From Escherichia coli (lineage in GTDB: Bacteria > Pseudomonadota > Gammaproteobacteria > Enterobacterales > Enterobacteriaceae): a stretch of 64,000 bases of DNA. The notes under the pieces are model-generated. The model did not search any database. It was not told the origin of the DNA and saw nothing but the letters and a program-made list of their open reading frames with translations. The stretch lies in the NCBI RefSeq assembly GCF_050920415.1, contig NZ_CP169309.1; one strand, 5' to 3'. Of this stretch, positions 1 to 43,855 are shown piece by piece (the stretch's first letter is position 1; each line of letters opens with the position of its first letter). The translations under genes and the position numbers were made by a program.

Positions 1-203
1 AGATGGGTTAATGCCTGTGAAGACGGGGCATCGGCGATAACGGTAAGGTAAAAAGTAAATCCGATCGTCATAAACACGCCTGCGGACATCGCCATTAAAA
101 AGACCGACACTTTGCTGCGGGCAATTTTATGGGCGGCAATCCGTTCAGCGATTGCCGCTTTTCTGGCGCTCAACTGCAAGTCGAAAGAGAGTTTGTTTCT
201 CAT
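1..203 (-). CDS. focB: Formate channel FocB, N-terminal part (gene runs off window start)
   Basis: Minus-strand translation from ATG at 201-203 gives MRNKLSFDLQLSARKAAIAERIAAHKIARSKVSVFLMAMSAGVF..., recognised as FocB N-terminus; position just downstream of hyfR as in K-12. Confidence 0.85.
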   Translation of the reverse strand, partial: MRNKLSFDLQLSARKAAIAERIAAHKIARSKVSVFLMAMSAGVFMTIGFTFYLTVIADAPSSQALTH

Positions 204-224
204 GCATACTCCTGCAAAAACAGA

Positions 225-2237
225 TTACAACACCTCGCGAACCGAGATCCCCAGCCGCTGCATTCGTGACAGCAGCGTGGTGCGCTTCATCCCTAATCGC
301 GTCGCCGCGCCACGGGGCCCGGCAACAATGCCATTGGTTTCTCGCAATACCTGAACAATGCGCTTACGTTCTTCTTCGTCATTCTCTGGCGTCGTCGGGT
401 GCAGTAACTGCGCCATTGAACTGCGAAGCGCTGAATCTTCATTTAGCGTCGGCAGTAAACGGCTTTGTCGGACATTAAGATGTAAATTCAGACTGTTACC
501 GCGAGTCAGTAGTACCGCTCGCTCAATCACGTTTTCCAGCTCGCGCACGTTGCCCGGCCAGTCCCACGACATCAACTGGCGTAGCGCTTCTGTTGGAATG
601 GCATCAATTGTGCGATTCATATGGCGAGCCATTTTTTGTGTAAAATGTTTTGCTAAAAGAGGGATATCTTCCGGACGGTCGCGTAGCGGCGGCAATTCCA
701 GTGGAAAGACGTTCAGGCGATAAAAGAGATCGCTGCGAAACTGGCGATCTTCTACCATTTGCCACAAATCACGGTTGGTGGCGGCAATGACTCTGACATT
801 CACCGGGATCGTTCTACTCCCACCGAGACGCTCAATTTCCCGCTCCTGTAATACGCGTAGCAGTTTGGGCTGAAGTTCTAACGGCAGATCGCCAATTTCA
901 TCGAGAAATAACGTGCCGCCATCGGCAATTTCAAAACGACCACGATGAGTGTTAATCGCGCCAGTAAATGCCCCTTTGTCGTGACCGAATAACTCACTTT
1001 CCAGAAGACTGGCGGGGATGGCAGCGCAGTTGATTTTGACCAGCGGCTTGTCGCGTCGTGGGCTAAGTTGATGGATCGCTCTGGCGATCACCTCTTTGCC
1101 GGTTCCGGTTTCACCACAAATCAACACCGTACTGTCGCTCTTCGCCACAATATCTACCTGCTGGAGCAAATCTTCCATTGCCTGGCTTTGATAGATAATG
1201 TCACCGACGCCCAGATTCGAAAGGAGCTGCTCGCTAAGCTGGTGGTTTTCTTGCTGCAAGCTTTCCTGCAAATCGGTCATGCTACGCCAGGCATCGGCAT
1301 TGCCAACGGCAATAGCGATGCGATCGGCAATATGTTGTAGTAGCTGGCAGTTTTCCTCCCCAAAGAGAGTGGAAGAGGTATGCGCCAGCAACAATGCACC
1401 CGGTGTATGGTTGCCAAAGGTGAGCGGTATAAGGAGCGCAGATTCGCAGCCGTTAGATGCAAGTAAGTGTAATAACGGGTCGCGTTGCCAGAGAAACAGA
1501 TCGTCTGCACGGTGCGTCAAGGTCGGTTGTCGGGTTTGTAGCGTTTGTGTCAGCAATACACTTTCGCCAGGCATACAGCGTGGCAGACTCGCACAATGTG
1601 AGGCAGAAAGATCGCTGCACCACAGGCTGAACTTCTCGTTCTTTCGATGATCGCCCAGTACCATACTGACTGAAGCCAGACCGAAAAAATGATGGATCTC
1701 ACGAGCGACGTCAGCGATCAGATCGTCGAGATCAAGATGTGACAACACTGCATTAGTGATATCCACCAGTACCCGATGATGATCGCGATCTTTCTCCAGC
1801 AAACGCAGCGCCACCTGCTGTTCTTCATCATTGAGCCATGATTGCAGAACCGGAGTGATTATGTGTGCCAGCCAGTTAAACAGTGTGCAATCCTGGGGAG
1901 TAAAACGATTGCCGTGGGTGCGAATAAAGCGTAGCTCCGCCATTCCACTACTGCCGAGAAGGACGGCGTGGCGCGAATAATCGACCATCTCGCCCTGATA
2001 CTCTGTTGTTGCCGTCACATCGCTGCCATCATCATGGTAGCGGTAATAGAAGTTGCTTTTGAGAACATGCAGTTCAATAAGTTGTACCGGGCTGAACGGC
2101 GGCGGCAGCGGGATGAAGGCGCGTAATAAAGACGCCTTGCCGTGTTTCTGCGCTAACCGCTCCGCGAGCATTCCGTTTACCGCTTCAATTGTTATTCCTT
2201 GTGGCGGGGCAAACATCGCCTCGTCTGACATAGCCAT
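225..2237 (-). CDS. hyfR: Sigma-54-dependent transcriptional activator of hyf operon
   Basis: 670-aa ORF; AAA+ sigma-54 activator motifs (GETGTGKE Walker A, GAFTGA), C-terminal HTH; FhlA-like GAF N-domain. Confidence 0.95.
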   Translation of the reverse strand: MAMSDEAMFAPPQGITIEAVNGMLAERLAQKHGKASLLRAFIPLPPPFSPVQLIELHVLKSNFYYRYHDDGSDVTATTEYQGEMVDYSRHAVLLGSSGMAELRFIRTHGNRFTPQDCTLFNWLAHIITPVLQSWLNDEEQQVALRLLEKDRDHHRVLVDITNAVLSHLDLDDLIADVAREIHHFFGLASVSMVLGDHRKNEKFSLWCSDLSASHCASLPRCMPGESVLLTQTLQTRQPTLTHRADDLFLWQRDPLLHLLASNGCESALLIPLTFGNHTPGALLLAHTSSTLFGEENCQLLQHIADRIAIAVGNADAWRSMTDLQESLQQENHQLSEQLLSNLGVGDIIYQSQAMEDLLQQVDIVAKSDSTVLICGETGTGKEVIARAIHQLSPRRDKPLVKINCAAIPASLLESELFGHDKGAFTGAINTHRGRFEIADGGTLFLDEIGDLPLELQPKLLRVLQEREIERLGGSRTIPVNVRVIAATNRDLWQMVEDRQFRSDLFYRLNVFPLELPPLRDRPEDIPLLAKHFTQKMARHMNRTIDAIPTEALRQLMSWDWPGNVRELENVIERAVLLTRGNSLNLHLNVRQSRLLPTLNEDSALRSSMAQLLHPTTPENDEEERKRIVQVLRETNGIVAGPRGAATRLGMKRTTLLSRMQRLGISVREVL

Positions 2238-2266
2238 TAACAGTCCTTATTAATGAGAAATCCTTC

Positions 2267-2680
2267 TCACGCAATTTTTCTGGCCATCAGATAGATGGCC
2301 GGTTCCTGCACAATTTCATCCAACAGATGAATGAATTGAATGCTACGCGCCTGCCACACAGACGTCGCGTCATCTGCCAGTGGCGCGAATGCCCGGGTCA
2401 ACAGGGCGGTGTGGCTGGCGTCAATAACAATCTCACCAAAGGTCATCACCCCCAGCATCTTACGTCGGGCTTGCTCCTCTTCGACCTGTGCAAGCCAATC
2501 TTCGTATTCCGTCTGTGGGCAGCGGAAGGCGACATTCAGACAATCAATCACGCCAACGTGATGACCGATAGCCAACGAGTAATACATTACCTGGGAGCTG
2601 TGTTCCGGCATCTCGTCGCTACTGGCGATAAATTTTTTTCGCAGTGTCCAGAAAACAATTTCCCCGCACTCCTCAGCCAT
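2267..2680 (-). CDS. hyfJ: Hydrogenase-4 maturation/assembly protein (HycH-like)
   Basis: 137-aa ORF at 3' end of hyf operon; length and position match HyfJ. Confidence 0.85.
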
Positions 2681-3431
2681 GTAACCCCCGGAGAACGCGA
2701 AAGAGTTGCTGAACGATACTATTGAGACGCGGATCGTCGGCTTCGCGCAACCAGGTGTTAACCCGATTTCCTGTAGGATCGTCGCTTAAATGGCGCAGGA
2801 GCCGATCGCAAATTTCTCGCCCCTGACGATAGCCCGCCAGCCGCCTCGCTTCTCGCTCAATGGCGATACGCTGTGATGGCGGGATATGCGGCCACAGCGG
2901 TTGCATGGTCACCCCGGTGGGATCGCGATAATCCACCGCGTGAATCTTCTGTTGTAGCAAACCGAGCGCCACGGCGAAACCGTGAATGGTGGCGGCCGGT
3001 GTTGGCGGGCAGCCGGGGATCCAAACATCAATGGGGACAATGGTGTCGCTGCCGCCCCAGACGCTGTAGAGATCGTGGAAAATACCGCCGCCGACACCGC
3101 ACGCGCCGTAGGAAACACAGATTTTATGATCGGGGGCAGACTCATATGCCCGAAGTGCAGGCATACGCATCGCCCGGGTGACTGCGCCAGTAAATAACAA
3201 AATATCGGCGTGACGAGGTGATGAAACAACCTTAATGCCAAAGCGTTCTGCGTCGAACACTGGCGTGATGGCGGCAAAAATTTCGATTTCACAGGCGTTG
3301 CAGCCGCCACAATCCACGCGATAAACGTAGGCCGAACGACGGATATCCTGTAGCAAATGCTGCTTCATCTTTTGCGTTTGTTCGTCCAGCGTGATGGGCT
3401 GGCTGACATGTTGCGTAAGCACTGGACTCAT
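2673..3431 (-). CDS. hyfI: Hydrogenase-4 small subunit (NuoB-like)
   Basis: 252-aa ORF; NuoB-type Fe-S cysteine motifs ([12 protein letters not shown]); overlaps hyfJ and hyfH by a few nt (coupled). Confidence 0.9.
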
Positions 3432-3973
3432 AGCTGCTCCTTAGCCACCAGCGGTTCATCTGTGTCGTCGTTGATCAGCGTCGCGCGTTGTTTGCATTCC
3501 GGGCAGACGCTCGCTTGCGCCCACAACATTTCGCGGTTTTGTGGTGCATTTTGTTGCTGTGCCAACAGTTCTGCAGCCAGTGCGACGGTTTTTTGCGGGG
3601 CAAACGGGCGTTCGCAACGGCTGCAACGTTGTAGATGGAACTTCGCGCGGGTATAGAGATCGGCTTTATTGGTGACGGTCAGTTCAAAGTTATCAGTAAG
3701 CTGAATGGCTCTGGTCGGGCACACTTCTTCACAACGTCCGCAGTAAATACAACGCCCCAGATAGAGCTGCCAGGTGCGCGTATTTTGCTGGTCGTCGGTC
3801 TGGATAGTCAGCGCATTTGCCGGACAAGCACAGGCGCAGGCACCGCAGGCAATACATTGGCTGGGCATCAGGTCCGGTTTCCCGCGAAAGCCTGGGCTGA
3901 CCTCCAGTGGCGCGAAGGGATATTTCACCGTCGCGGTTCCGGCGCGCATAATAGTTTTCAGTAACTTCAGCAT
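3428..3973 (-). CDS. hyfH: Hydrogenase-4 ferredoxin-type subunit (2x 4Fe-4S)
   Basis: 181-aa ORF with two CxxCxxCxxxCP motifs. Confidence 0.9.
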
Positions 3974-3982
3974 TTTCTGTCC

Positions 3983-5743
3983 TTACTTCAGCGGCGAACG
4001 GTTACGATCAATGCCGTAGCGTTCGATCTCTTTATACGGCACGGTTTTTGACTGGCGCTTGCGCACATCAACCAGCGTCACACGGTCGGTACAGGAGTAG
4101 CAGGGATCAAGGCTACCGATAATCAGCGGTGCGTCAGAAACGGTATTGCCGCGCAGCATGTAACGCAGCACTGGCCAGTTGGCGTAGGTGGCGGCACGAC
4201 AGCGCCAGCGGAACAATTTTTGGTTATCGCCGAGCATGCTCCAGTGCACGTCTTCACCGCGTGGCGCTTCAACAAAGCCCAGCGCGAATGCGTGAGGTTT
4301 ATAGCTAAAGCCTTCGGTCAGCAGTGGGGTATCCGGCATGTTGTCGAGGGCAAATTCCAGCATTGCCAGCGAATCAAACGTCTCTTTGACACGGACCATC
4401 ACGCGGGAGAAGACATCGCCGCCGGTAAAGGTAAACAGCGTTTTTGGAATATTGCCGTAGTCGGCGTAGGGGTGATCAAAGCGCAAATCACGGGCAAAAC
4501 CACTGCCACGGATCAGCGGCCCTACGGGGCTATAATCACGGGCGATTTGTCGGTCGAGAATGCCAATGCCCTGAGTGCGTTGTTCCATATTCGGCGTGGC
4601 AAGCAGCATCTCTACCAGCTCCGACACGTCGGCGCGCATCTCGCGCACCAGTTTCATCGTTTGCAGACGTTGCTCTTTGAGAATATCGCGGCGAACACCA
4701 CCAATCAGATTCAGACCGTAGGTTTTACGCGACCCGGTCAGCAATTCCGCCATCGTCATCGACTTTTCCCGCACGCGGAAAAATTGCATAAAACCGGTAT
4801 CAAAACCAACAAAATGGCAGGAGAGGCCAAGGTTGAGCAAATGACTATGCAGCCGTTCGACTTCCAGCAGAATCGAGCGAATAGTATGCGCTCGTTGCGG
4901 CACCTCAATCCCCAGTGCATTTTCAACCGAGTTGGTATAGGCCACACTGTGGGCAAAACCGCAAATCCCACACACGCGGTCCGACAAGAAGGTCACTTCG
5001 TTGTAGCCCATCCGCGTTTCTGCCAGTTTCTCCATGCCGCGATGGACATAAAACAGGCGGTAATCAGCATCGACAATATGCTCGCCATCCACAAACAAGC
5101 GGAAGTGACCTGGTTCATCGGAGGTGATATGCAGCGGGCCAACAGGGATCACCCGCGCATCGCTGTTGCCCTCGTTGATAAACGGATACGTTTCGGTATC
5201 AGTCGTCGGTTCAGGGCGCAGGCGATAATCCATCGCGTCTTTGCGCAGCGGATGCATATCTTCCGGCCAGTCATCGGGCAACACCAGGCGACGCTGATCC
5301 GGCAGGCCAACCGGAATCAGCCCGTACATATCGCGAATTTCTCGCTCGCCCCAGACCGCGGCAGGGACGCGCGGTGTGACTGACGGAAACTCCCGACTGT
5401 CGGCATCGACCAGTGCCTTCACCACGATCCAGCATTTTTCGGCCCCTTCCATTGAAAGGGCATAATAAACCGCGTAATGACCGTTAAGTGTCCGCTCGTC
5501 GTTGCCAAACAGGACCGGAAGCCAGCCATCATGTTGATAATAAAGATAATGTACAACGTCAGGCAGCAGATTTATTTTCACCGTAATGGTGACCTGTTCA
5601 GGCGTTTGTCGCTCTTCATCCAGCACCGCGCCGGGGAACTGCGTTTTCAGGGCGGCGAGAATCGCTTCGCCACGATTTGACGATGAATTAACGTTCACTG
5701 TGTTTCTCCGAAACAGATGCGGTGCCTGAAGGCAAAAAATCAT
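3983..5743 (-). CDS. hyfG: Hydrogenase-4 large (NiFe) subunit
   Basis: Longest ORF 586 aa; NuoD/HycE-like sequence. True start is probably an internal GTG near 5698 ([14 protein letters not shown]...). Confidence 0.9.
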
Positions 5744-7268
5744 GCCAGGTGCTACGTTGTGCAGGCAGGTCGTGCGTCCCTGAGAGGACTATAGTGGAAG
5801 CGCCCGCCAGGATCCTGATGACAGGTTGTGGAATATGCGTTCCCATCGCCAGCATCATGACCAGCAGAATCACCATTGGCGAGGTGGTCAACCAGCCAAG
5901 TTCACCCCGGTTAACGGCCTGCGGCGGTTTCGCCATTAACACCCGCGCAGCCATCCGTACCAGGCCCGCCAGCACCAGCGTTAACAGCAATAACAGCAGG
6001 ACGATAATCAACAGGTGATTACGAGCCAGTCCGGCGGTAACGGTCATAAATTCGCTAAGAAAAATGTTGAAGGGCGGCATCCCGGCCAGCGCCAGCGCAC
6101 CGCCGCCAAACAGCACGGCGGTAAATGGCATGATTTTGAGCATTCCGCAGACGACGTTGAGATCGCGCGTGCCGTACTTGAGCAGTACATTGCCGGAACC
6201 GCAGAACAGCAGCGTTTTTGCCAGACTGTGGTTTAAGGTGTGCAGCAGCGCAGCAAAAATTCCCAGCGGCCCGCCAATGCCTAGCGCCACCGCGACCAGT
6301 CCCATGTTCTCCACGCTGGAGTACGCCAGCAGACGCTTAATGTCCCGCTGTACCAGAATGAAAAATGCCGCCACGGCAACCGACAACATGCCGAAGATGA
6401 GCAACAACCGGTTGGGGAAATCGCTGCCGATGGCCTGGCAAATAATGATGTAATAGCGAATCAGCACCAACAGCGCGCAGTTCAGCAATACGGCGGAGAG
6501 CAGGGCGCTGACCGGACTCGGCGCTTCACTGTGAGCATCCGGCAGCCAGGCGTGCATGGGAAATAGCCCGGTTTTGGTGCCAAAGCCAATTAGCACAAAC
6601 ACAAAGGCCAACAGCATTAATGTTGGGTCAAGCAAGGACGATTGCTTAAGAACCTCGCTCCAGAATATCGCCATTTCTGCCTGCGGCATAACGCTGGCGG
6701 CGTTGGCGTATACCAGCACGGTACCGAACAGACCAAAAGCGACACCAACAGTACAAATAATGATGTACTTCCATGCAGCTTCCAGAGATGAACGCTGACC
6801 GTAAATGCCTACCAGAAACGCCGAGCTTAAGGTGGTGGCTTCGATTGCCGCCCACATCACAATCAGGTTATTGCTGGTAACAACCAGCAGCATGGTGAAC
6901 AAAAACAGATGGAAGAAACCGTAGTAATCGCACAGCGTAACGGGTGAAAGCTCGCCGTGAGCCACTTCATGACGCATGTAGCCAATCGAGTAAACACCGG
7001 TGAGAAAGCCAATCACACCAAGAATGGCGAGGAACAAACCGCCCAGACCATCAATATGAAGCCACAGTCCGGCGGCGAATATTTCTTCCGCATCCGCGGC
7101 GGTTTTGACCACCCAGAGTGCCAGAATCAGCAGCAGCGTGATCCCTAAGCTATGTAATACTGTCACCGTGCGAGTCGCAGAGTGTCCCCGTTTCCGGCAG
7201 GCAAAACAGAGCAGCGAAAAAAGCAGCGGCGTGAGCAGGAGTAAAGCGAACATCACAGAATAACTCAT
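5688..7268 (-). CDS. hyfF: Hydrogenase-4 membrane subunit (NuoL/M/N antiporter-like)
   Basis: 526-aa polytopic membrane ORF; operon position. Confidence 0.9.
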
Positions 7269-7272
7269 CTCA

Positions 7273-7923
7273 TTATCCCTTCAGCGCGGTCAAGTTGTTC
7301 ACGTCCAGCGTGCCGTGGGTACGCCATATTTTTCTTGCCAGCAACACCATCACAACGACGGCGAAAATGGCATCGGTAGCGATACCAATTTCCACCAGTT
7401 CCGGTGCACGCCAGGCAAGAAGTGCCAGCACCAGATGGGAGCCGTTTTCCATCAGGCAGTAACCAAAAATTTGCCGCAGGATATTGCGCTGGCTGACAAT
7501 GCACAGCAGGCCAAGCAGAAAATGACCTAACGCCACCGCCAGCGCCGGTTTCAGCCCGGTAGCCATCGGTAGCTTCACGGGCTGAACGACAAATGCGCAA
7601 AGCAGGACAATTAATGCCGCGAGCAATGCCATCATTGCCGGACCGAATAACGCTTTTTCCGGGAGGTTCTGGGGAATATTTCGTGCAGCGTAAATCATGA
7701 TTAACGGTACCATCAGTACTTTGGTGATAAAGGCGCTGGCGGACCAGATCAGCAGTTGCTCTGCGGCGAACAGGCACGAGAGGGTGGCGAAAATAGACAC
7801 CAGCACCAGCGACTGGCAGGCGTAAAATCCGCATGACAGGCGATAGCTTTTGACACTAATCACAAACAGCGATGTCAGCATCATCAGTCCCGCCAGATTA
7901 TTTACGATCATAGAACCGGTCAT
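7273..7923 (-). CDS. hyfE: Hydrogenase-4 membrane subunit
   Basis: 216-aa hydrophobic ORF; operon position. Confidence 0.9.
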
Positions 7924-7934
7924 TCATCATCTCC

Positions 7935-9374
7935 TTACTGCAACCAGGTCGCGGCGAATACGCTGGAAATCAGCGACATCACAATCAGTACAATCAACAC
8001 CAGGCGCATTGATCCTGGCAGCGGTGCGGCATCAGCGACGGCCTCGCTCGGTTTGCCAGGCACAACGCGACCAAACCAGCGAATAAACCAGGCGAAACTG
8101 GCAATCGATTCAATCATCAGCAGAATCATGGCGGGCAGCAGGATCCAGTACTCCACTGACAACGAAAAACCGGCAGCAAACAGTGGGAATTTACTGAAGA
8201 AGCCGTTGAACGGCGGCACGCCAGTAATCGCCAGCGCGGCCACGCAGAAACCCACGCCTGGCAACGGCAGGGTGTGCAATACGCCACGCAGACGCGGCAA
8301 CAAGCGCGTGCCGCAGCTGTAACTCAGCGCACCGGCTACAAGGAAAAACAGGCTTTTAGCGAACGCGTGGTTGACGATGTAGGCGATGCTGCCCTCCAGT
8401 GCCAGCCGCGAGCCGAAGATGGAGAGCGACAAGCCGAAGAACATCCAGCCAAGTTGAGTGATGGTCGACCAGGCCAGCAACCGCTTCATATCCTGCTGCG
8501 GCAAATACATCAGGAAGCCGTAAAGAATGGTGACCAGTGCCATGACCATGCCAACGCCGCCAATCACATGCGGGATATTGCCGCCGTCGATAATGGCGCG
8601 GGCAAAAATGTAAACGCCCACTTTCACCATCGATGCGGCGTGGAGATAGGCGCTGATCGGTGTTGGCGCTTCCATTGCATCCGGTAGCCACGCTTGCATC
8701 GGTAGCTGGGCCGATTTCCCCCACGCGGCAAACAGGATGCCACCATAAACCAGATAGCGTGCGTCGCCGTGTAACTCGCTCATCGCGCTAAGCGCAAACG
8801 TTCCGGTCTGCAAAAACAGCGTGGCGGCGGCAAGATACAACCCCAGCGAACCGATATGAGTGATAAGTAACGCTTTTAGTGCTGAACGTTGCGCTTTATC
8901 GCTCTGGTAATAACTGATCAACGCCCAGGAGCAGCCGCCCGTAATTTCAAAAAACAACAACTGACCGAGCAGCGTCGAGGAGAGTACCAGTCCCGCCATC
9001 GCGCCGATAAAAACCAGCAAAAATGCGTAATAACGATTCGTGCCGTTATGCGGGTGTTCGCGATTTTTATCCGTCAGATAACCCGTGGAGTAGATCGTGA
9101 CCAGCAAACCGAGGAACACCACCACAAACAGAATCAGCGTACTCACGCGATCAATGATCAGGCCAAACAACGCCACATCCCCCACGTTGACCAACGTCAA
9201 CGTGACGGCAACTTTATCGGCCTGATAAAACGCGGAGATCAGCGACAACATGCACAGCGTGGTCAGCGCGGCGAACAAAATCCCCCATTCGGCGGCCCGA
9301 CGTTGTGGCGAAAACGAAACGACCAGTGCGCCGATAAAAGGCAGCAATAACGTCGTCAGAGCAAGATTTTCCAT
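7935..9374 (-). CDS. hyfD: Hydrogenase-4 membrane subunit (NuoL/M/N antiporter-like)
   Basis: 479-aa polytopic membrane ORF. Confidence 0.9.
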   Translation of the reverse strand: MENLALTTLLLPFIGALVVSFSPQRRAAEWGILFAALTTLCMLSLISAFYQADKVAVTLTLVNVGDVALFGLIIDRVSTLILFVVVFLGLLVTIYSTGYLTDKNREHPHNGTNRYYAFLLVFIGAMAGLVLSSTLLGQLLFFEITGGCSWALISYYQSDKAQRSALKALLITHIGSLGLYLAAATLFLQTGTFALSAMSELHGDARYLVYGGILFAAWGKSAQLPMQAWLPDAMEAPTPISAYLHAASMVKVGVYIFARAIIDGGNIPHVIGGVGMVMALVTILYGFLMYLPQQDMKRLLAWSTITQLGWMFFGLSLSIFGSRLALEGSIAYIVNHAFAKSLFFLVAGALSYSCGTRLLPRLRGVLHTLPLPGVGFCVAALAITGVPPFNGFFSKFPLFAAGFSLSVEYWILLPAMILLMIESIASFAWFIRWFGRVVPGKPSEAVADAAPLPGSMRLVLIVLIVMSLISSVFAATWLQ

Positions 9375-9390
9375 ATTCCGTCAGTGCTCC

Positions 9391-10338
9391 TTACAGACCG
9401 GTTAACCAGAAGACCCAGGCAAGCGCAGCAAGGCTGAAGCCAAGCCAGGTCACATGGTGAATGAGTAAAAAACGCCCGCGTGCCAGCGTGTTTTCTGCGA
9501 TAGAGGCCAGAACAAAAATCAGCAAAACCTTGAGCAGCGTAACGACAAGTGAAGTCAGCAGGCAGGTGAGAGAAAGCTCTTGCGCGCGCCCAAAGGGCAG
9601 AAACAGGGCCACAAACAGTGCTGCCATCACGACCTGTTTCAGCCCCAGCCCCCATTTCGCCAACGCCAGCCCGGCACCGGAATATTCGGTCAGCGGGCCT
9701 TCCTGTAATTCCTGTTCTGCTTCAGCAACATCAAAGGGAATTTTTCCCATCTCAATGAAGCAGGCAAAACCACAGGCCAGTAACGCCAGTACGGTGGTTA
9801 GCGGCGAGTTCCAGCCCGTCGCCAGCGTCTTGCTGATCATCTCGATATGCGTGGAATCCGCTATCAGCGCCAATACCAGCAGTGAGAGAATGAGCATTGG
9901 TTCGACCAGAATGCCGAGCGTCAACTCGCGACTGGCACCGACACCCGCAAACGGACTTCCGGTATCCAGCCCGGAAAGAGCAAAGAAAAAACGAAACAGG
10001 GCAAGAAGATAGATAAGGGTGATCAGATCGCCGCCGCCCGCAAAAGGGGAAACAGTAATAAATAGTGGTAGGGCCATCGCCAGCACCAGCATGCTGCTGA
10101 TTAATACCCACGGCATCAGGCGGAACATCAGACCTGAAGATGTCGGCGCAACTTCCTGGCGTTTAAACAGTTTGTGGATATCGCGATAATCCTGCCAGAT
10201 CCCCGGTCCGCGACGGGAGTGCATACGCGCGCGTATCTGCCGGGAAATCCCCGTAAAAAGCGGGGTTAGCGCCAGCAGAATCACGGCCTGTGCTAACGCA
10301 AAAATGATCAGATATCCGTCGCAAAGAGTTTGTCTCAT
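9391..10338 (-). CDS. hyfC: Hydrogenase-4 membrane subunit (NuoH/HycD-like)
   Basis: ORF 322 aa; start taken at internal Met (MRQTLCDGYL...) giving 315 aa. Confidence 0.9.
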   Translation of the reverse strand: MRQTLCDGYLIIFALAQAVILLALTPLFTGISRQIRARMHSRRGPGIWQDYRDIHKLFKRQEVAPTSSGLMFRLMPWVLISSMLVLAMALPLFITVSPFAGGGDLITLIYLLALFRFFFALSGLDTGSPFAGVGASRELTLGILVEPMLILSLLVLALIADSTHIEMISKTLATGWNSPLTTVLALLACGFACFIEMGKIPFDVAEAEQELQEGPLTEYSGAGLALAKWGLGLKQVVMAALFVALFLPFGRAQELSLTCLLTSLVVTLLKVLLIFVLASIAENTLARGRFLLIHHVTWLGFSLAALAWVFWLTGL

Positions 10339-10348
10339 GGTGATTTCC

Positions 10349-12367
10349 TTAGACGGCAATAGCGATTAGCAGCACAACCAGTGCGGCGACCACATACAGG
10401 CAATAGAGACGAAAGTCGCCGCTTTGCAGATGCTGTATTTCTTTGGCCAGCCGTTGGGTGGCGCTCACGATGGGGCGGATCACCCGCTCATCCCAAAAGG
10501 GTTCTGTGCTCTGAGCCCTGGCGGTGATGTGCGCGAGACCTTTGTTCAGCCTCAGCGTAGGGTCGAGCTGTTGTCGTAGACGAAATAGCGCAGAAAAGAC
10601 CACACGCAGCGGCTGCATCACGCCATTGCCTGACGGGGCCATCGCATTTTCCCAGCCGTAGCCGCATGCCCAGGCATCTCCTGTGCGACGAAACGCTGCG
10701 CGGCGCGAACGACACCACAGCCAGTAAAGGCCAGGCAGCAAAGGCATCGCCAGTAGTAACAGCAACAGTAATGAGGGAGTGACCCGTGTATGAAACGTGC
10801 CGGGTACAAGTGCCATTCCGCTGGCGACAGTGACGGAAGGGGTATTGGTAAACGCATGGGCAATGTGCATTATCTTCGGTGCCAGCCAACTGGCACTAAG
10901 CGCAATGAATACGCAGAGTGCCGCGAGCAGTAGCATGGCGACGATCATCGTATTTGGCACTTCCTGTGCCTCTTCAGCGTGTGTACTGCGCGGCGCACCA
11001 CAGAAAGTAATGCCGTACATTTTGACGAAGCACATTACTGCCAGCCCACCAGTGACTGCCAGCATCACCATAGCAATAGGACCCGCAAGTTGTAGCGCTA
11101 CGGCTTCCACACGACTTAGTGAGAACAGCGACTGCCAGGTGTACCATTCGCTGATAAAACCATTCAGCGGAGGAATGGCTGATATCGCGAGGCAACCAAT
11201 CAGGCATGCTGCGGCTGTCCACGGCATCCGTTTTGCCAGTGCCCCCATTTTTTCCATGTCGTGGGTATGCAAACGCGAAATAATCGCACCCGCGCCGAGA
11301 AATAGCAGCCCTTTGAACAGCGCATGGTTGAGCAGATGAAACAGTGCGCCGAGCAGTCCAACCACGGTGAGCAGCGGGTCGTGCAGTGACAGACCGACCA
11401 TGGACACACCGACCGCCAGCAAAATAATGCCGACGTTTTCGACGGTACTCCAGGCCAGCAGCCGTTTGATATCCTGTTCCGCCAGCGCATACAGCACGCC
11501 CAGGAGCGCGGAGATTGCGCCGATCGCCATCACCAGAATGCCCCACCACAGCGGCAAACCCGTTTGCGCCAGCAGATCCATCGCCACTTTCAGGATGCCG
11601 AAAATACCGATTTTGACCATTACGCCAGACATCAACGCCGAAGCGTGCGATGGTGCGGCAGGGTGAGCGCGCGGCAACCAGCTGTGCAACGGCATCATCC
11701 CGGCTTTCGCGCCAAAACCGAAGAAGGCCAGCAGGAACACCGCCGACGCCAGCCCCGGAGAAAGTGAAAGCGTGCGGAAACTGGCAAAATCGAGGTTGCC
11801 GCTTTCGCGCCACATCAGCAAGAAGGCAATCATAATCAGCACCGATCCGGCGTGGGCGATAAAAAAGTAGAGCATGCCAGCGTTGATTGACGTTTTATCC
11901 TGCCTGGCAATGACCAGAAACCAGGAAGACAGCGACATCATTTCAAACAGCACGATGAACCAAAAAGCGTTGTCCATCACCAGCAGGGCAACCATCGATG
12001 CGATGAAAAGATTCATAAAGAAGCCCATCGCCGCCGCGCCTTTGCCCTCGTATTCGCGCATATAAGTCAATGAATAGAGCGAACAAACCACCACCAGCAA
12101 GGAGATAACCAGCACCATAAATGCCGAGAGGCTATCCATTCGCAGGGTTAAATCGGCAAAGTCAAAAGGCGTGGCAAAACGGGCGACTAAAGTTACGCCT
12201 GCATGTAATTGCGTAATTCCGCTGATGATGCCAATCGCGCCGCCCACCAGCGATGTGATGCCGGAAAGCTTAATAGCCAGTCTGTCCAGACCGAGTAAAA
12301 ACAGCGAAGCCAGACTGGCAAACAGATAGAGGATCAGCGACCAGGTTAATAATTGCAGGGCATCCAT
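10349..12367 (-). CDS. hyfB: Hydrogenase-4 membrane subunit (NuoL-like)
   Basis: 672-aa polytopic membrane ORF; stop overlaps hyfC start region. Confidence 0.9.
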   Translation of the reverse strand: MDALQLLTWSLILYLFASLASLFLLGLDRLAIKLSGITSLVGGAIGIISGITQLHAGVTLVARFATPFDFADLTLRMDSLSAFMVLVISLLVVVCSLYSLTYMREYEGKGAAAMGFFMNLFIASMVALLVMDNAFWFIVLFEMMSLSSWFLVIARQDKTSINAGMLYFFIAHAGSVLIMIAFLLMWRESGNLDFASFRTLSLSPGLASAVFLLAFFGFGAKAGMMPLHSWLPRAHPAAPSHASALMSGVMVKIGIFGILKVAMDLLAQTGLPLWWGILVMAIGAISALLGVLYALAEQDIKRLLAWSTVENVGIILLAVGVSMVGLSLHDPLLTVVGLLGALFHLLNHALFKGLLFLGAGAIISRLHTHDMEKMGALAKRMPWTAAACLIGCLAISAIPPLNGFISEWYTWQSLFSLSRVEAVALQLAGPIAMVMLAVTGGLAVMCFVKMYGITFCGAPRSTHAEEAQEVPNTMIVAMLLLAALCVFIALSASWLAPKIMHIAHAFTNTPSVTVASGMALVPGTFHTRVTPSLLLLLLLAMPLLPGLYWLWCRSRRAAFRRTGDAWACGYGWENAMAPSGNGVMQPLRVVFSALFRLRQQLDPTLRLNKGLAHITARAQSTEPFWDERVIRPIVSATQRLAKEIQHLQSGDFRLYCLYVVAALVVLLIAIAV

Positions 12368-12984
12368 TAGCGTTGCTCCTGAGTGAGGGAAAGGGGATCC
12401 TCCCCGCCATTGGCAAACCAGCTTGCGGCAAGGCGCTGTTTTTCTTTCATCTGACGTTGCAGGCTATCGTCGGTGATCAGCCGTAACGCATGATTCGGGC
12501 AAGCGCGAACGCAGGCCGGACCTTCTGGCAAGAAATCACACAGGTCGCATTTCACCGCGACGCTCTGGACACCCGGTTCCCAGCGCAGCAAAGCATGTTG
12601 GGTCGGCGCGTTTTCTTCGCCGTCTTTGAGTGAGCCGTCAGCCTGAAAAACATATTGCGCAGGGGCATTCACCGGACGGCTTCCTGAAGCGCTGATTGCG
12701 CCAAATGGGCAGACCACGGCGCAAAGCTTGCAGCCAATACAGAGGCTTTCGTTGAGTTGGATCGCATCATCTCTCTGGGAGATGGCATTGACCGGGCAGA
12801 CCTGCAGGCAAGGGGCTTCCTCACAGTGATGACACACGACAGGGGCAGTGAGTGTTGACGTCTTCGCCAGGGCCAGGCGCGGGTGTTGCTGTAAACCTTG
12901 CGTTTTATGCACGTCCGAACAGGCAGCGAGACAGGTATTACATCCTGTACACCACAGTGGTTCGGCCACCACAAAGCGGTTCAT
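12367..12984 (-). CDS. hyfA: Hydrogenase-4 Fe-S subunit (HycB-like, 4x 4Fe-4S)
   Basis: Start at Met of MNRFVVAEPLWCTGCNTC (205 aa) preceded by AAGGAG SD 5 nt upstream; multiple CxxCxxCxxxC motifs. Confidence 0.9.
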   Translation of the reverse strand: MNRFVVAEPLWCTGCNTCLAACSDVHKTQGLQQHPRLALAKTSTLTAPVVCHHCEEAPCLQVCPVNAISQRDDAIQLNESLCIGCKLCAVVCPFGAISASGSRPVNAPAQYVFQADGSLKDGEENAPTQHALLRWEPGVQSVAVKCDLCDFLPEGPACVRACPNHALRLITDDSLQRQMKEKQRLAASWFANGGEDPLSLTQEQR

Positions 12985-13025
12985 GTCGGCTCCTTGAAAA
13001 TGATATGAAACATTGCATTTCATAT

Positions 13026-13041
13026 TGCATAAAGGATGCCA
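13026..13041 (-). promoter_or_regulatory. Sigma-54 (-24/-12) promoter of hyf operon
   Basis: Minus-strand reads TGGCAT-CCTTT-ATGCA (consensus TGGCAC-N5-TTGCA) about 40 bp upstream of the hyfA ATG; consistent with the HyfR/FhlA-dependent hyf promoter. Confidence 0.65.
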
Positions 13042-13236
13042 GTCTGATTAATTTAATATATTCAATAAGTTATGTATTAACTGGATTCTGAACGGTACAA
13101 AAATGATGGTCATTAACGTTCAGCAATAAATGGATTCGACACCCGTGTCGCAGGGGAAAGCGAGAATGTGATCTTGATCACGAGAAGTGAGGTGTGCTGG
13201 CCGCAAGCGCAGCCAGCACTGAATGGAGCAAAGTAA

Positions 13237-13707
13237 TCAGGCGTGTTCTTTCAGCCAGTTCAGCACAACGTCGTGGTGATTGCTGGTTTTGAAATCGTCA
13301 AAGACATGTTCGATTTTGCCATCAGCGTCAATCAGGAAGCTGATGCGATGAATACCATCGTAGGTTTTGCCCATGAAGGACTTTTCACCCCAGACGCCGA
13401 ATTGTTCGCACACCTGGTGGTCCTCATCAGACAGGAGCGTAAAGTTAAGCAGCTCTTTTTCCGCAAAACGGGAGAGTTTTTCGGGTTTATCGGTGCTGAT
13501 ACCCAGCACATCAACGCCCGCTTTTTTCAATTCATCCATGTTATCGCGTAAGCCGCAGGCCTGTACGGTACAGCCGGGAGTCATGGCTTTTGGGTAAAAA
13601 TAAACCAGAACACGCTGTCCCTGGAAGTCGGTCAAATTAACTTGTTCTCCGTCTTGATCCGGCAAGCTAAATTTCGGTGCGATATCACCGGCTTTCAGTG
13701 GATTCAT
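13237..13707 (-). CDS. bcp: Thiol peroxidase / bacterioferritin comigratory protein (peroxiredoxin)
   Basis: 156-aa ORF; peroxiredoxin active-site motif PGCT. Confidence 0.95.
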   Translation of the reverse strand: MNPLKAGDIAPKFSLPDQDGEQVNLTDFQGQRVLVYFYPKAMTPGCTVQACGLRDNMDELKKAGVDVLGISTDKPEKLSRFAEKELLNFTLLSDEDHQVCEQFGVWGEKSFMGKTYDGIHRISFLIDADGKIEHVFDDFKTSNHHDVVLNWLKEHA

Positions 13708-14279
13708 TACTTAACTCCATCCTGTTCATCATGTGGGGAATAATTGACGACGTTTATACTGCCTTGTGCATTGAGTTCTGTACATAGGGCTTTAAACGCT
13801 TGCTCAATATTTGCTGCATCCGCAGAGGCGGGACTGTGGGCGGTTATCTGAATATGCAACTGTGCAGCCCGTTCATTTTCAGCAGGTTGCGTGCGCGACA
13901 CCAGCTCCGCAATGTTCATATGGTGCGCGTCGAAAAGTGCCGTGAAGCGTTCAATTAAATGCGGGGAGTCTGCCACATCGACCTGAACCCAGACAGATGC
14001 TGGCATTGGCGGACGCGGACGCGCCGTCGTGCGCTTCATCACGATTAAAAGATCCAGTTCGGCACCTTTCAACGGTAACGTTGATTCAATCAGAGTAATG
14101 GCATTCCATGAACCGGAAAGCAGCATGATAAACGTGAACTCTTCTCCCAGCATCGCCAGGCGACTGTCTTCAATATTACAGCCGCAACTACTGACATGAC
14201 GGGTGATGGTGTTCACAATTCCAGGGCGATCGGCACCCAACGCAGTGATCACCAGATAATGTTGCGATGACAGTGTCAA
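13707..14279 (-). CDS. gcvR: Glycine cleavage system transcriptional repressor
   Basis: ORF 212 aa; recognised GcvR sequence (TLSSQHYLVITALGADRPGIV...) begins at an apparent TTG start at 14279, giving 190 aa. Confidence 0.85.
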   Translation of the reverse strand: MTLSSQHYLVITALGADRPGIVNTITRHVSSCGCNIEDSRLAMLGEEFTFIMLLSGSWNAITLIESTLPLKGAELDLLIVMKRTTARPRPPMPASVWVQVDVADSPHLIERFTALFDAHHMNIAELVSRTQPAENERAAQLHIQITAHSPASADAANIEQAFKALCTELNAQGSINVVNYSPHDEQDGVK

Positions 14280-28442: not shown

Positions 28443-28647
28443 ACGCGTCTTCTCCACATAAAATCATTAATGTTCCAGTTTGCTGAAATGCAATTTAATC
28501 AGTGATGGGATTATTTGATCTGCCACAGTTTATAGCGAAATAGTGACTTATTCTGGGCACATGAACATTGCCGATTCCCCTGTAAGTCGGGTAATAACAA
28601 CACTCATATAAAGAATAAGGTTTTTACAACCAAAAAAGAAGGTCGTT

Positions 28648-30627
28648 ATGAATCGTTTTATTATGGCCAACAGTCAGCAATGTCTGGGTTGTCATGCTTG
28701 TGAAATCGCCTGTGTCATGGCTCACAATGATGAGCAACATGTCCTGAGCCAACACCATTTTCATCCCCGAATTACGGTTATCAAACATCAGCAGCAACGT
28801 AGTGCGGTGACCTGTCACCATTGCGAAGATGCGCCCTGCGCCCGTAGTTGCCCTAATGGCGCGATCAGCCATGTTGATGACAGCATTCAGGTCAATCAGC
28901 AAAAGTGTATTGGCTGTAAATCCTGCGTGGTTGCTTGTCCATTTGGTACGATGCAAATCGTCCTGACACCCGTCGCGGCAGGCAAAGTTAAAGCCACGGC
29001 GCATAAATGCGACCTTTGTGCAGGTCGCGAAAGCGGTCCTGCCTGTGTCGAGAATTGTCCGGCGGACGCTCTGCAATTGGTCACTGACGCCGCACTCTCC
29101 GGCATAGCGAAATCTCGCCGCCTGCGCACCTCACGTCAGGAGCATCAACCGTGGCATGCCAGTACTGGGGCACCAGAAATGCCGGCGATGAGTAAAGTCG
29201 AGCAAATGCAGGCAACCCCCGCGCGAGGCGAGCCGGATAAACTGGCGATTGAAGCGCGCAAAACTGGTTTTGATGAAATTTATCTGCCATTTCGCGCCGA
29301 CCAGGCACAACGGGAAGCCTCGCGTTGCCTGAAGTGCGGCGAGCACAGCGTTTGTGAATGGACCTGCCCTCTGCATAACCACATTCCGCAGTGGATAGAG
29401 CTGGTGAAAGCCGGAAATATCGACGCCGCCGTCGAGCTTTCTCACCAGACCAACACCCTGCCAGAAATTACCGGACGTGTTTGCCCGCAAGACCGTCTGT
29501 GCGAAGGAGCCTGCACCATTCGCGATGAGCACGGAGCGGTAACTATCGGCAACATCGAACGCTACATTTCGGATCAGGCGTTGGCGAAAGGTTGGCGTCC
29601 TGACTTAAGCCATGTCATCAAAGTGGATAAGCGGGTGGCGATTATCGGTGCAGGTCCGGCAGGGCTAGCCTGTGCGGATGTTCTGATCCGCAATGGCGTG
29701 GAGGTGACGGTGTATGATCGCCATCCAGAAATCGGTGGCCTGCTCACCTTCGGCATTCCTTCTTTCAAACTGGATAAGTCCCTGCTGGCGCGTCGCCGGG
29801 AAATCTTCAGCGCGATGGGGATTCACTTCGAACTCAATTGTGAAGTGGGTAAAGATGTCACTTTGGATTCGCTTTTGGAACAATACGACGCGGTCTTCGT
29901 TGGCGTAGGCACTTACCGTTCCATGAAAGCGGGTTTACCTAATGAAGATGCGCCGGGCGTTTATGACGCGCTGCCATTCCTCATCGCCAACACTAAACAG
30001 GTGATGGGACTTGAAGAGTTACCTGAAGAGCCGTTTATCAATACCGCCGGACTCAATGTCGTGGTACTGGGCGGTGGCGACACCGCGATGGACTGTGTGC
30101 GTACCGCGCTGCGCCATGGCGCGAGTAATGTCACCTGTGCCTATCGTCGTGATGAAGCTAACATGCCTGGCTCGAAGAAGGAGGTGAAAAACGCCCGCGA
30201 AGAGGGGGCAAACTTCGAATTTAACGTCCAGCCGGTGGCGCTTGAGCTGAATGAGCAAGGTCATGTTTGCGGAATTCGTTTCCTGCGTACGCGTCTTGGC
30301 GAGCCGGATGCCCAGGGGCGTCGGCGTCCGGTGCCGGTGGAAGGCAGTGAGTTTGTGATGCCAGCCGATGCGGTGATCATGGCATTTGGTTTTAATCCTC
30401 ATGGTATGCCGTGGTTGGAGTCGCACGGTGTAACGGTGGATAAATGGGGCCGCATCGTAGCGGACGTTGAAAGCCAGTACCGTTACCAGACCACGAATCC
30501 GAAAATCTTCGCCGGTGGCGATGCCGTGCGTGGTGCGGATCTGGTGGTTACCGCAATGGCAGAAGGACGTCATGCGGCACAGGGGATCATTGACTGGCTG
30601 GGGGTAAAATCAGTCAAATCTCACTAA
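28648..30627 (+). CDS. aegA: Fe-S / FAD-NAD(P) oxidoreductase (glutamate-synthase beta-subunit-like), anaerobically expressed
   Basis: 659-aa ORF: N-terminal 4x4Fe-4S ferredoxin motifs, C-terminal GxGxxG (IIGAGPAGLACA) pyridine nucleotide-disulfide oxidoreductase domain. Confidence 0.9.
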   Translation: MNRFIMANSQQCLGCHACEIACVMAHNDEQHVLSQHHFHPRITVIKHQQQRSAVTCHHCEDAPCARSCPNGAISHVDDSIQVNQQKCIGCKSCVVACPFGTMQIVLTPVAAGKVKATAHKCDLCAGRESGPACVENCPADALQLVTDAALSGIAKSRRLRTSRQEHQPWHASTGAPEMPAMSKVEQMQATPARGEPDKLAIEARKTGFDEIYLPFRADQAQREASRCLKCGEHSVCEWTCPLHNHIPQWIELVKAGNIDAAVELSHQTNTLPEITGRVCPQDRLCEGACTIRDEHGAVTIGNIERYISDQALAKGWRPDLSHVIKVDKRVAIIGAGPAGLACADVLIRNGVEVTVYDRHPEIGGLLTFGIPSFKLDKSLLARRREIFSAMGIHFELNCEVGKDVTLDSLLEQYDAVFVGVGTYRSMKAGLPNEDAPGVYDALPFLIANTKQVMGLEELPEEPFINTAGLNVVVLGGGDTAMDCVRTALRHGASNVTCAYRRDEANMPGSKKEVKNAREEGANFEFNVQPVALELNEQGHVCGIRFLRTRLGEPDAQGRRRPVPVEGSEFVMPADAVIMAFGFNPHGMPWLESHGVTVDKWGRIVADVESQYRYQTTNPKIFAGGDAVRGADLVVTAMAEGRHAAQGIIDWLGVKSVKSH

Positions 30628-38387: not shown

Positions 38388-38723
38388 ATGGATAAAGAAC
38401 GCATCATTCAGGAATTTGTGCCCGGCAAACAGGTCACACTGGCGCATCTCATTGCGCATCCCGGCGAAGAACTGGCGAAGAAAATCGGCGTTCCGGATGC
38501 GGGCGCAATCGGCATTATGACGCTAACTCCCGGCGAAACGGCGATGATCGCCGGTGATTTAGCACTGAAAGCTGCCGATGTGCATATCGGTTTCCTCGAC
38601 CGTTTTAGCGGCGCACTAGTGATTTATGGCTCGGTGGGCGCAGTAGAAGAAGCGTTATCACAAACCGTCAGTGGTTTAGGTCGTTTATTAAATTATACGC
38701 TTTGTGAAATGACCAAAAGTTAA
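38388..38723 (+). CDS. eutS: Ethanolamine microcompartment shell protein (BMC)
   Basis: Starts [21 protein letters not shown]; 111 aa; first gene of eut operon. Confidence 0.9.
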
Positions 38724-38735
38724 TACGAGGCATTC

Positions 38736-39215
38736 ATGAAACGAATTGCGTTTGTGGGTACCGTCGGGGCAGGAAAAACAACGTTATTTAATGCGTTGCA
38801 GGGGAATTATACCCTCGCCAGAAAAACACAGGCCGTGGAATTTAATGATAAGGGTGATATTGATACGCCGGGTGAATATTTTAGCCATCCCCGCTGGTAT
38901 CACGCCTTAATTACCACGCTACAGGATGTGGACATGCTGATTTATGTCCACGGCGCGAATGACCCGGAAAGCCGATTGCCTGCCGGGTTGCTGGATATTG
39001 GTGCCAGCAAACGGCAAATCGCCGTCATCAGTAAAACGGACATGCCGGATGCTGACGTCGCAGCAACGCGAAAGTTATTGCTTGAAACTGGTTTTGAAGA
39101 GCCGATTTTCGAGCTAAACAGCCACGACCCGCAAAGCGTGCAGCAACTGGTGGATTATCTGGCATCTCTCACCGAACAGGAGGAAGCAGGTGAAAAAACT
39201 CATCACAGCGAATGA
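38736..39215 (+). CDS. eutP: Ethanolamine utilisation GTPase-like protein
   Basis: 159 aa; P-loop GTVGAGKTT. Confidence 0.9.
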   Translation: MKRIAFVGTVGAGKTTLFNALQGNYTLARKTQAVEFNDKGDIDTPGEYFSHPRWYHALITTLQDVDMLIYVHGANDPESRLPAGLLDIGASKRQIAVISKTDMPDADVAATRKLLLETGFEEPIFELNSHDPQSVQQLVDYLASLTEQEEAGEKTHHSE

Positions 39216-39891
39216 TATTCGTGAAGCACATGCGCGCGGCGAACAGGCAATGTCTGTGGTTCTGCGCGCCAGCATTATTACCCCGGAAGCCCGCGAAGTG
39301 GCGGACTTGCTGGGGTTTACCATCACCGAATGCACTGAATCGACGCCAGTAGCGGCATCTGTTCCCGTCAGCGTGCCTGCCGATAAAACTGAAAGCCAGC
39401 GTATCCGCGAAACCATCATCGCCCAGCTGCCGGAAGGCCAGTTTACCGAAAGCCTGGTCGCGCAGCTGATGGAAAAAGTGATAAAGGAAAAACAGTCGCT
39501 GGAGCAGGGTGCAATGCAGCCGAGTTTTAAATCGGTGACCGGCAAAGGCGGCATCAAAGTTATTGATGGCAGCAGCGTGAAGTTTGGTCGTTTCGATGGC
39601 GCGGAACCGCACTGCGTAGGCTTGACTGATCTCGTGACCGGAGACGACGGCAGCAGCATGGCCGCCGGTTTTATGCAGTGGGAGAACGCCTTCTTCCCGT
39701 GGACCCTGAACTACGACGAAATCGACATGGTACTGGAAGGGGAGCTTCATGTTCGCCATGAAGGCGAAACCATGATCGCTAAAGCAGGCGACGTGATGTT
39801 TATCCCGAAAGGTTCCAGCATCGAATTTGGTACGACATCCAGCGTGAAATTCCTGTATGTCGCCTGGCCGGCTAACTGGCAATCCCTATGA
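39190..39891 (+). CDS. eutQ: Ethanolamine utilisation cupin protein / acetate kinase
   Basis: 233-aa ORF overlapping eutP 3' end. Confidence 0.9.
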   Translation: MKKLITANDIREAHARGEQAMSVVLRASIITPEAREVADLLGFTITECTESTPVAASVPVSVPADKTESQRIRETIIAQLPEGQFTESLVAQLMEKVIKEKQSLEQGAMQPSFKSVTGKGGIKVIDGSSVKFGRFDGAEPHCVGLTDLVTGDDGSSMAAGFMQWENAFFPWTLNYDEIDMVLEGELHVRHEGETMIAKAGDVMFIPKGSSIEFGTTSSVKFLYVAWPANWQSL

Positions 39892-41704: not shown

Positions 41705-41742
41705 ACGGTCCCGTTCTGGACCCCTATAAAGAGGAAAACACA

Positions 41743-42036
41743 ATGGAAGCATTAGGAATGATCGAAACCCGGGGCCTGGTTGCACTGATTGAGGCTTCTG
41801 ATGCGATGGTGAAAGCTGCGCGCGTCAAACTGGTTGGTGTTAAGCAGATTGGCGGCGGCCTGTGTACTGCCATGGTTCGCGGTGATGTTGCAGCCTGTAA
41901 AGCCGCGACCGATGCCGGTGCCGCAGCGGCACAGCGTATCGGTGAACTGGTATCCGTACATGTTATTCCGCGTCCGCACGGCGATCTGGAAGAGGTCTTC
42001 CCGATCGGCCTGAAAGGCGATAGCAGCAACCTGTAA
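41743..42036 (+). CDS. eutM: Microcompartment shell protein (BMC hexamer)
   Basis: Starts [26 protein letters not shown] (BMC domain); 97 aa. Confidence 0.9.
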
Positions 42037-42430: not shown

Positions 42431-42441
42431 GGCAGAACATC

Positions 42442-43845: not shown

Positions 43846-43855
43846 GGAGTAACCG

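Follow-up and report, generated by a model that had tools for sequence, protein, structure and literature searches.

Organization of the hyf Operon

The DNA analysed here is a stretch of 64,000 nucleotides (nt) from Escherichia coli (RefSeq assembly GCF_050920415.1, contig NZ_CP169309.1), hereafter called the window. Our subject is the hyf operon at its left end, which encodes hydrogenase 4 (Hyd-4), the hydrogenase part of formate hydrogenlyase 2 (FHL-2). The operon occupies positions 1-13,060 on the minus strand, and its catalytic-subunit gene, hyfG, contains a 48-nt segment that K-12 lacks and has lost by deletion. We compared letters 1-14,000 of the window with the complete E. coli genomes (n = 5,426) and with RefSeq annotation. 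This part matches the MFDS1022581 chromosome of E. coli with 100% identity, and 5,425 of the 5,426 genomes match it at least in part. On the MFDS1022581 twin record, RefSeq annotates the genes focB-hyfR-hyfJIHGFEDCBA, and bcp and gcvR lie upstream of hyfA, the same as in K-12. The annotated identical genome, together with NCBIfam and Pfam matches, bears out the identity hyfABCDEFGHIJ-hyfR-focB that an initial annotation, made from the letters of the window, had given to the region.

The NCBIfam cut-offs were exceeded by HyfB, HyfD, HyfE, HyfF, and HyfH (equivalog models) and by HyfI and HyfJ (subfamily models), with the scores listed in Table 1. In Pfam, HyfR shows GAF, Sigma54_activat (251 bits), and AAA lid domains, and full-length FocB, taken from the identical genome record, is a formate/nitrite transporter (Form_Nir_trans, 215 bits). 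The 11 genes hyfABCDEFGHIJ and hyfR are all open from start to stop in the window, with no stops or frameshifts, which agrees with the earlier statement that the ten structural genes and the activator gene are intact. The same statement had extended to a complete locus with an intact formate channel gene, and here it needs correction: the left edge of the window cuts focB, so that only its first 203 nt lie inside, although the gene is uncut in the identical MFDS1022581 record. The gene junctions are indeed tight or overlapping, as had been noticed, with spacers from hyfA through focB of -1, 10, 16, 11, 4, -11, 9, -4, -8, 29, and 21 nt, and a Shine-Dalgarno sequence is visible at most hyf gene starts. 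Translational coupling, which these junctions had been taken to suggest, has been shown by experiment in E. coli for the hyfH-hyfI junction, where it proceeds by termination-reinitiation (PMC10666635); the suggestion stands for that junction. The operon contains no gene for a maturation protease of the HycI/HyfK type, and the same is true of K-12.

Table 1. Genes and sequence elements of the hyf region, with positions counted from the first letter of the window.
Feature	Position	Strand	Description
focB, 5' part only	1-203	-	codons 1-67 of 282; RefSeq places focB at window -645..203; product begins MRNKLSFDLQ
hyfR	225-2237	-	sigma-54-dependent transcriptional activator, 670 aa; 662/670 residues identical to K-12
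hyfJ	2267-2680	-	HycH-like maturation/assembly protein, 137 aa; NCBIfam NF011664 (HycH), 208 bits, cut-off 145
hyfI	2673-3431	-	hydrogenase small subunit, NuoB-like, 252 aa; NCBIfam NF005012, 122 bits, cut-off 116
hyfH	3428-3973	-	ferredoxin-like subunit, 181 aa; NCBIfam NF006076, 359 bits, cut-off 270; canonical CxxCxxCxxxCP motif
hyfG	3983-5698	-	[NiFe] large (catalytic) subunit, 571 aa, 1,716 nt, GTG start
downstream copy of 10-nt direct repeat GCCCGTGATT	4486-4495	-	hyfG positions 1204-1213
48-nt segment, 16 codons	4496-4543	-	present in window hyfG, absent from K-12; register ambiguous by 10 nt owing to the flanking repeat
upstream copy of 10-nt direct repeat GCCCGTGATT	4534-4543	-	hyfG positions 1156-1165
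hyfF	5688-7268	-	antiporter-like membrane subunit, 526 aa; NCBIfam NF005041, 1175 bits, cut-off 951
hyfE	7273-7923	-	FHL-2-specific membrane subunit, 216 aa; NCBIfam NF008556, 366 bits, cut-off 136
hyfD	7935-9374	-	antiporter-like membrane subunit, 479 aa; NCBIfam NF005097, 808 bits, cut-off 430
hyfC	9391-10338	-	NuoH/HycD-like membrane anchor, 315 aa; RefSeq; 309/315 residues identical to K-12; weak NuoH similarity
hyfB	10349-12367	-	antiporter-like membrane subunit, 672 aa; NCBIfam NF005086, 973 bits, cut-off 667
hyfA	12367-12984	-	ferredoxin-like electron-transfer subunit, 205 aa; RefSeq; 200/205 residues identical to K-12; HydN/AegA-type similarity below family cut-offs
sigma-54-type -24/-12 promoter-like element TGGCATCCTTTATGCA	13026-13041	-	42 nt upstream of hyfA ATG; TGGCAT-N6-TGCA; pattern match
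perfect inverted repeat CGACACGGGTGTCG	13137-13150	-	CGACAC-GG-GTGTCG; upstream of the promoter-like element; unchanged in K-12; read from sequence

A 48-nt Segment Distinguishes HyfG From Its K-12 Counterpart

All twelve products were aligned to those of K-12 MG1655. Eleven of the twelve Hyf/FocB proteins are as long as in K-12, contain no internal stop, and are 97-99% identical to their K-12 counterparts; HyfG measures 571 amino acids (aa) in the window versus 555 aa in K-12 (1,716 versus 1,668 nt). The initial annotation had proposed this alignment as the way to find frameshifts or premature stops. It revealed none, but it did reveal the 16-residue in-frame length difference in HyfG, which a search for frameshifts and stops would have missed. 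The segment behind the difference is bounded by two copies of the direct repeat GCCCGTGATT, and the nucleotide alignment shows that K-12 retains one of them, which is the pattern left when the DNA between short direct repeats is deleted.

The window HyfG aligned over its whole length with HycE from the solved structure of formate hydrogenlyase 1 (FHL-1; 7z0s_E, E = 1e-292), and the sole gap in this alignment is a 12-residue internal tag of the solved HycE chain. The segment was likewise free of gaps in the alignment to the large subunit of the Pyrococcus furiosus membrane-bound hydrogenase (MBH-L). Among the 120 best homologues from a search of 5.8 billion proteins, which represent many genera, 115 contain the segment, and residues S390, V392, G393, P394, R397, S399, and G400 are invariant in these 115. 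The gapped sequences within the best 120 are E. coli-like only and carry the same flanking residues as K-12. Furthermore, the Pfam Complex1_49kDa score is 171 bits for the window form and 130 bits for the K-12 form. Because of the gap-free fit to HycE and MBH, the presence of the segment in nearly all of the best homologues, and the drop in the Pfam score, we regard the long hyfG allele as ancestral and the K-12 allele as derived from it by one 48-nt deletion between the 10-nt direct repeats. K-12 is consequently no clean yardstick for hyf, since its own hyfG carries this in-frame deletion.

Two public proteins of 740 aa consist of a deletion-type HyfG fused to a ferredoxin (HyfH-like) domain, and the hyfG stop codon has apparently been lost in some E. 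coli-like genomes.

The Segment Contains a Residue of the Putative Proton Pathway

The alignment with HycE, in which HyfG numbering equals HycE numbering plus 2, allowed us to locate the functional residues of the large subunit. The nickel-iron ligands are C243 and C246 in the N-terminal CxxC pair (HycE C241 and C244) and C533 and C536 in the C-terminal pair (HycE C531 and C534). The canopy residues are R480 (HycE R478) and D531 (HycE D529), and H286, R397, and E439 correspond to HycE H284, R395, and E437, respectively. E195 is also among the HyfG residues that align with functional residues of HycE. R539, which aligns with the HycE cleavage site R537, is followed by a 32-residue tail, so that both CxxC pairs and the cleavable C-terminal assembly peptide of a large subunit are found in the window HyfG.

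In HycE, a putative proton pathway runs from His284 through Glu437 and Arg395 to the canopy residues Arg478 and Asp529 (PMC9474812). The His-Glu-Arg pathway is conserved in formate hydrogenlyases, MBH, soluble hydrogenases, and complex I; in the last of these, NDUFS2 Arg297 takes the place of Arg395 (PMC9474812). In the window HyfG, Arg397 sits in the motif GPLIRGSG, within the 16 residues that are missing from K-12 HyfG. Judged by the alignment, the window protein has the complete set of metal-ligand, canopy, and His-Glu-Arg residues, whereas K-12 HyfG is without the R397 position, its deletion having removed the equivalent of HycE Arg395.

Distribution of the hyfG Alleles and State of the Operon in E. 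coli

A 201-nt hyfG probe matched 4,294 of the 5,426 complete genomes. An 88-nt probe centred on the segment, specific for the long allele, matched 2,179 genomes, and a 62-nt probe across the K-12 junction, specific for the deletion, matched 2,115, among which are K-12, B (REL606, BL21), HS, and several strains that produce Shiga toxin. The two numbers add up to exactly the 4,294 hyfG-positive genomes. The remaining 1,132 genomes gave no hyfG match, which accords with an earlier survey in which hyfABCDEFGHIJ are listed as genes whose presence varies between B2 strains and others (Touchon et al., 2009).

We then checked every open reading frame in 24 hyf loci, which were spread by similarity and not drawn at random; the sample is small and the fractions are rough. 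Our findings are consistent with the pseudogenes flagged by RefSeq. Most sampled E. coli hyf operons are damaged by frameshifts, stops, or in-frame deletions. Eight of the 24 are free of lesions, namely those of MFDS1022581 (the twin of the window), 2013C-4282, an O157:H7 strain, PKF11, MS 69-1, CE2050, CFSAN061768, and deer strain 48, and all eight have the long hyfG. Another seven have the long hyfG yet are decayed. The deletion allele is present in the other nine, eight of which carry further frameshifts, stops, or large deletions. All nine share one common hyfG haplotype, distinct from the nearest long alleles, which argues that the deletion arose once. An intact hyf operon is thus not the norm in E. 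coli, which makes the earlier observation that the operon is undamaged an informative one.

Several identical lesions recur among the decayed operons: -1 frameshifts in hyfB at gene nt 591, in hyfI at nt 348, and in focB at nt 681, and in hyfD either a -1 frameshift at nt 89 or 434 or a 208-nt deletion (nt 758-965). The window carries none of the hyfB nt 591, hyfI nt 348, hyfD frameshift, or 208-nt lesions. The hyfB lesion at nt 591 accompanies the short hyfG in HS, strain 114, and 2012C-4227 and the long hyfG in 94-3024, O125ac:H10, L65, JNE170426, and OkiPb01677. A 6-nt in-frame deletion in hyfH was found in eight of the sampled genomes (REL606, HS, 2012C-4227, ECCRA-119, 94-3024, L65, JNE170426, and OkiPb01677). 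This deletion trims the first ferredoxin motif from 12 to 10 residues, with loss of the CxxCxxCxxxCP spacing, and in most carriers it has no RefSeq pseudogene flag; both the window and K-12 encode the canonical HyfH motif. The co-occurrence of some lesions with either hyfG allele suggests that old alleles have been reshuffled by recombination within the operon. Across E. coli, hyf thus presents a mosaic: it is missing from some genomes, bears old shared lesions in others, and is conserved intact in still others.

In the O145:H28 strain 12E115, focB is broken by ISEc20, an element of the IS110 family, and hyfF is frameshifted as well.

Purifying Selection on Lesion-Free Operons

In a comparison of concatenated operons, the window groups with 2013C-4282 at 0.9% divergence and lies 2.2-2.5% from the group that contains K-12, B, and O157. 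Between lesion-free operons, DNA divergence reaches about 2.2-2.4%. The ratio of nonsynonymous to synonymous substitution rates (dN/dS) is 0.10 in five genomes of the lesion-free clade of the window, the same value as across the six lesion-free genomes then sampled, and 0.17 within the decayed cluster. Segregating nonsynonymous and synonymous differences number 107:334 in the intact clade versus 137:235 in the decayed cluster (Fisher p = 1.2e-4). The value of 0.10 points clearly to purifying selection where the operon is whole, and the excess in the decayed cluster hints at relaxed selection there.

The Region Upstream of hyfA

The intergenic region upstream of hyfA comprises 252 nt, of which 246 are identical to K-12. 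A scan with the sigma-54 consensus gave 55 matches in the window versus about 48 expected, no excess over chance. The element TGGCATCCTTTATGCA is on the right strand and in the right position, and K-12 has the same 16-nt core; a promoter function is presumed from this position, from conservation, and from reports on K-12, and not from statistics. The inverted repeat CGACACGGGTGTCG is a candidate site for the activator (HyfR/FhlA). About 185 nt upstream of hyfA there is a further palindrome, GTGATCAAGATCAC (13168-13181, minus strand), which is identical in K-12; it resembles the CRP-type site TGTGA-N6-TCACA and is a candidate for such a site.

Other Features of the Window

In NCBIfam, HyfA most resembles the ferredoxin portion at the N terminus of AegA, a formate-dependent uric acid utilisation protein. 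The aegA gene itself lies at 28,600-30,600 in the window, about 16 kb from hyf, and the likeness of HyfA and AegA is one of paralogy among formate-linked electron-transfer proteins. Farther along, at about 38,400-53,300, the annotation shows the ethanolamine utilisation (eut) operon as one unbroken run from eutS to eutR; in K-12 the prophage CPZ-55 is presumably inserted in this operon. Between eutR and hemF there are two extra genes, one for a hypothetical protein and one for a DUF1963 protein.

A Possible Cause of Hydrogenase 4 Inactivity in K-12

The hyf operon was reportedly described as early as 1997. Its product looks like a formate hydrogenlyase of the complex-I type that may pump protons, yet direct proof of its activity in K-12 has never been obtained, even with promoters replaced and tails swapped (PMC7654741). 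This has been called a "long-standing mystery" (Lindenstrauss and Pinske, bioRxiv 10.1101/563510). Finney et al. (2020) constructed 15 K-12 strains in which hyc or T5 promoters were placed before hyfA and the HycE assembly peptide was grafted onto HyfG, detected no Hyd-4 H2, and inferred "additional, unknown, biosynthetic problems" (PMC7654741). Their fusion used hyfG nt 1-1569, i.e., 523 codons (PMC7654741). This is the mature length of the deleted hyfG; for the full-length form, 1,617 nt would be required. The fusion length thus fits the deleted allele, which implies that all 15 strains carried the deletion. Our literature search found no report of a 16-residue gap or deletion in HyfG, but the primary papers of 1997-2004 were outside its reach, so that priority cannot be claimed.

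The region described here is very probably the chromosomal E. coli hyf operon, free of lesions and in the ancestral form. How it would work is suggested by what has been established for group 4a [NiFe] hydrogenases and by the FHL-1 structure. Transcription on the minus strand would start from the putative sigma-54-type promoter upstream of hyfA, activated by HyfR through its GAF and AAA+ domains. Electrons would pass from formate dehydrogenase H through HyfA and the likewise ferredoxin-like HyfH to HyfI and on to the [NiFe] site of HyfG, where the reduction of protons would yield H2. HyfC, the antiporter-like HyfB, HyfD, and HyfF, and HyfE would make up a complex-I-like membrane arm, which may couple turnover to ion translocation. 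HyfJ would aid assembly, and FocB would serve as the formate channel.

From its sequence, the window copy may yield an active enzyme, and the 48-nt deletion may cause the inactivity of Hyd-4 in K-12; the lack of 16 conserved residues may be the reason why the enzyme never worked in laboratory strains. We put forward a tentative proposal, which we consider possible rather than probable: the 571-aa HyfG would act in a working, possibly energy-conserving FHL-2 that a minority of lineages of E. coli possess, O157:H7 among them, and hydrogenase 4 of laboratory strains would have been killed by the hyfG deletion as the primary lesion, one that is found in K-12, B, and about half of the hyf-positive genomes. 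If this is true, it would explain more than two decades of undetected Hyd-4 activity, and restoring the 48 nt would switch on the K-12 enzyme.

Several points weigh against the overall reading of the region given here. K-12 stands alone among the nine sampled deletion genomes in that the 48-nt deletion is its only lesion. The AlphaFold2 model of HyfG (571 aa, 30-sequence alignment) has a mean predicted local distance difference test score of 63, with the segment 385-401 below 50, and is too poor to place the segment. The excess in dN/dS, 0.17 versus 0.10, is modest, and the decayed cluster is younger. Values of dN/dS rise at short divergence, which could partly account for the 0.17. With no maturation protease gene of its own, the operon would depend on hycI, which would have to lie elsewhere in the genome, beyond the window. 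The near-identity of the promoter region to that of K-12, in which expression is reported to be poor, means that an intact operon could still be silent. Finally, Finney et al. cite some evidence for a role of Hyd-4 in E. coli H2 metabolism under specific conditions (PMC7654741); if such a role is real in K-12, the deleted allele is not dead.

One alternative is that, for all its intact sequence, the operon is silent or redundant in physiological terms, as has been reported for K-12, that it yields no appreciable enzyme in nature, and that it is heading for decay as in most other E. coli lineages. We regard this as a serious possibility, though one we would not bet on. Besides the regulatory region, which is 98% identical to that of K-12, it draws on the poor native expression of hyf and on the fact that no maturation protease is encoded in the hyf cluster of E. 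coli (PMC7384014; PMC7654741), on the absence of a match in 1,132 of 5,426 genomes together with the presence differences of Touchon et al., and on the lesions in 16 of the 24 sampled hyf-positive genomes. However, there are eight independent lesion-free operons with all 12 genes open, and their dN/dS of 0.10 argues for continued purifying selection and hence for use in these lineages.

It is unlikely that the 48-nt difference is neutral, with the two HyfG alleles functionally alike and the inactivity in K-12 stemming from expression, maturation, or partner proteins. Such a reading would fit the fact that every other hyf gene of K-12 is open, and that the deletion is in frame and has spread to 2,115 genomes. 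Yet the deletion removes seven positions that are invariant in 115 homologues, the equivalent of HycE Arg395 among them, eight of the nine sampled deletion genomes carry further hyf lesions, and neither promoter replacement nor tail swaps rescued the Hyd-4 of K-12. We reject the reading in which the window gained the 48 nt by a strain-specific insertion or duplication and K-12 represents the original state. The direct repeats at the bounds would by themselves fit insertion or deletion, but the segment is no copy of neighbouring sequence, it fits HycE, archaeal MBH, and homologues of many genera residue for residue, and 2,179 E. coli genomes carry it, on many haplotypes, as against a single haplotype for the short form.

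Although the hyf system itself is already known, the deletion in the hyfG of K-12 offers a testable lead for the unexplained inactivity of Hyd-4. The window provides an undamaged comparator for a laboratory reference that is without a conserved segment of the catalytic subunit. That K-12 is a poor reference sequence for hyf matters wherever hydrogen metabolism is inferred from genome annotation.

Comparison With Known Hydrogenase Systems

The closest known system is hyf of K-12 (b2481-b2492), which has the same twelve genes, order, and junction architecture as the window and occupies the same chromosomal site, with bcp-gcvR on one side and yfgO-bepA on the other. It differs in the 48-nt hyfG deletion between the GCCCGTGATT repeats, and the window holds focB only in part.

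The hyc system, FHL-1 (hydrogenase 3; cryo-electron microscopy structures 7Z0S and 7Z0T), shares much of this organization: HyfA, HyfH, HyfI, HyfJ, HyfC, and HyfB correspond to HycB, HycF, HycG, HycH, HycD, and HycC, respectively. In comparison with hyc, hyf adds HyfD, HyfE, and HyfF, which brings the membrane arm to five subunits and makes it resemble the arm of complex I, and HyfE is the protein that distinguishes FHL-2 (bioRxiv 10.1101/563510). Unlike hyc, hyf has neither hycA nor the hycI protease gene but possesses its own activator, hyfR, and channel gene, focB.

The FHL-2 systems of Pectobacterium atrosepticum and Trabulsiella guamensis are, as in the window, of the hyf-type group 4a with five membrane subunits, and both have been shown to make H2 (PMC7384014; bioRxiv 10.1101/563510). 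Large subunits from the Pectobacterium family in our alignment keep the 16-residue segment. Both operons encode the protease HyfK, whereas that of E. coli lacks a protease gene and has hyfR-focB at its end; the Trabulsiella operon, unlike that of E. coli, is without focB.

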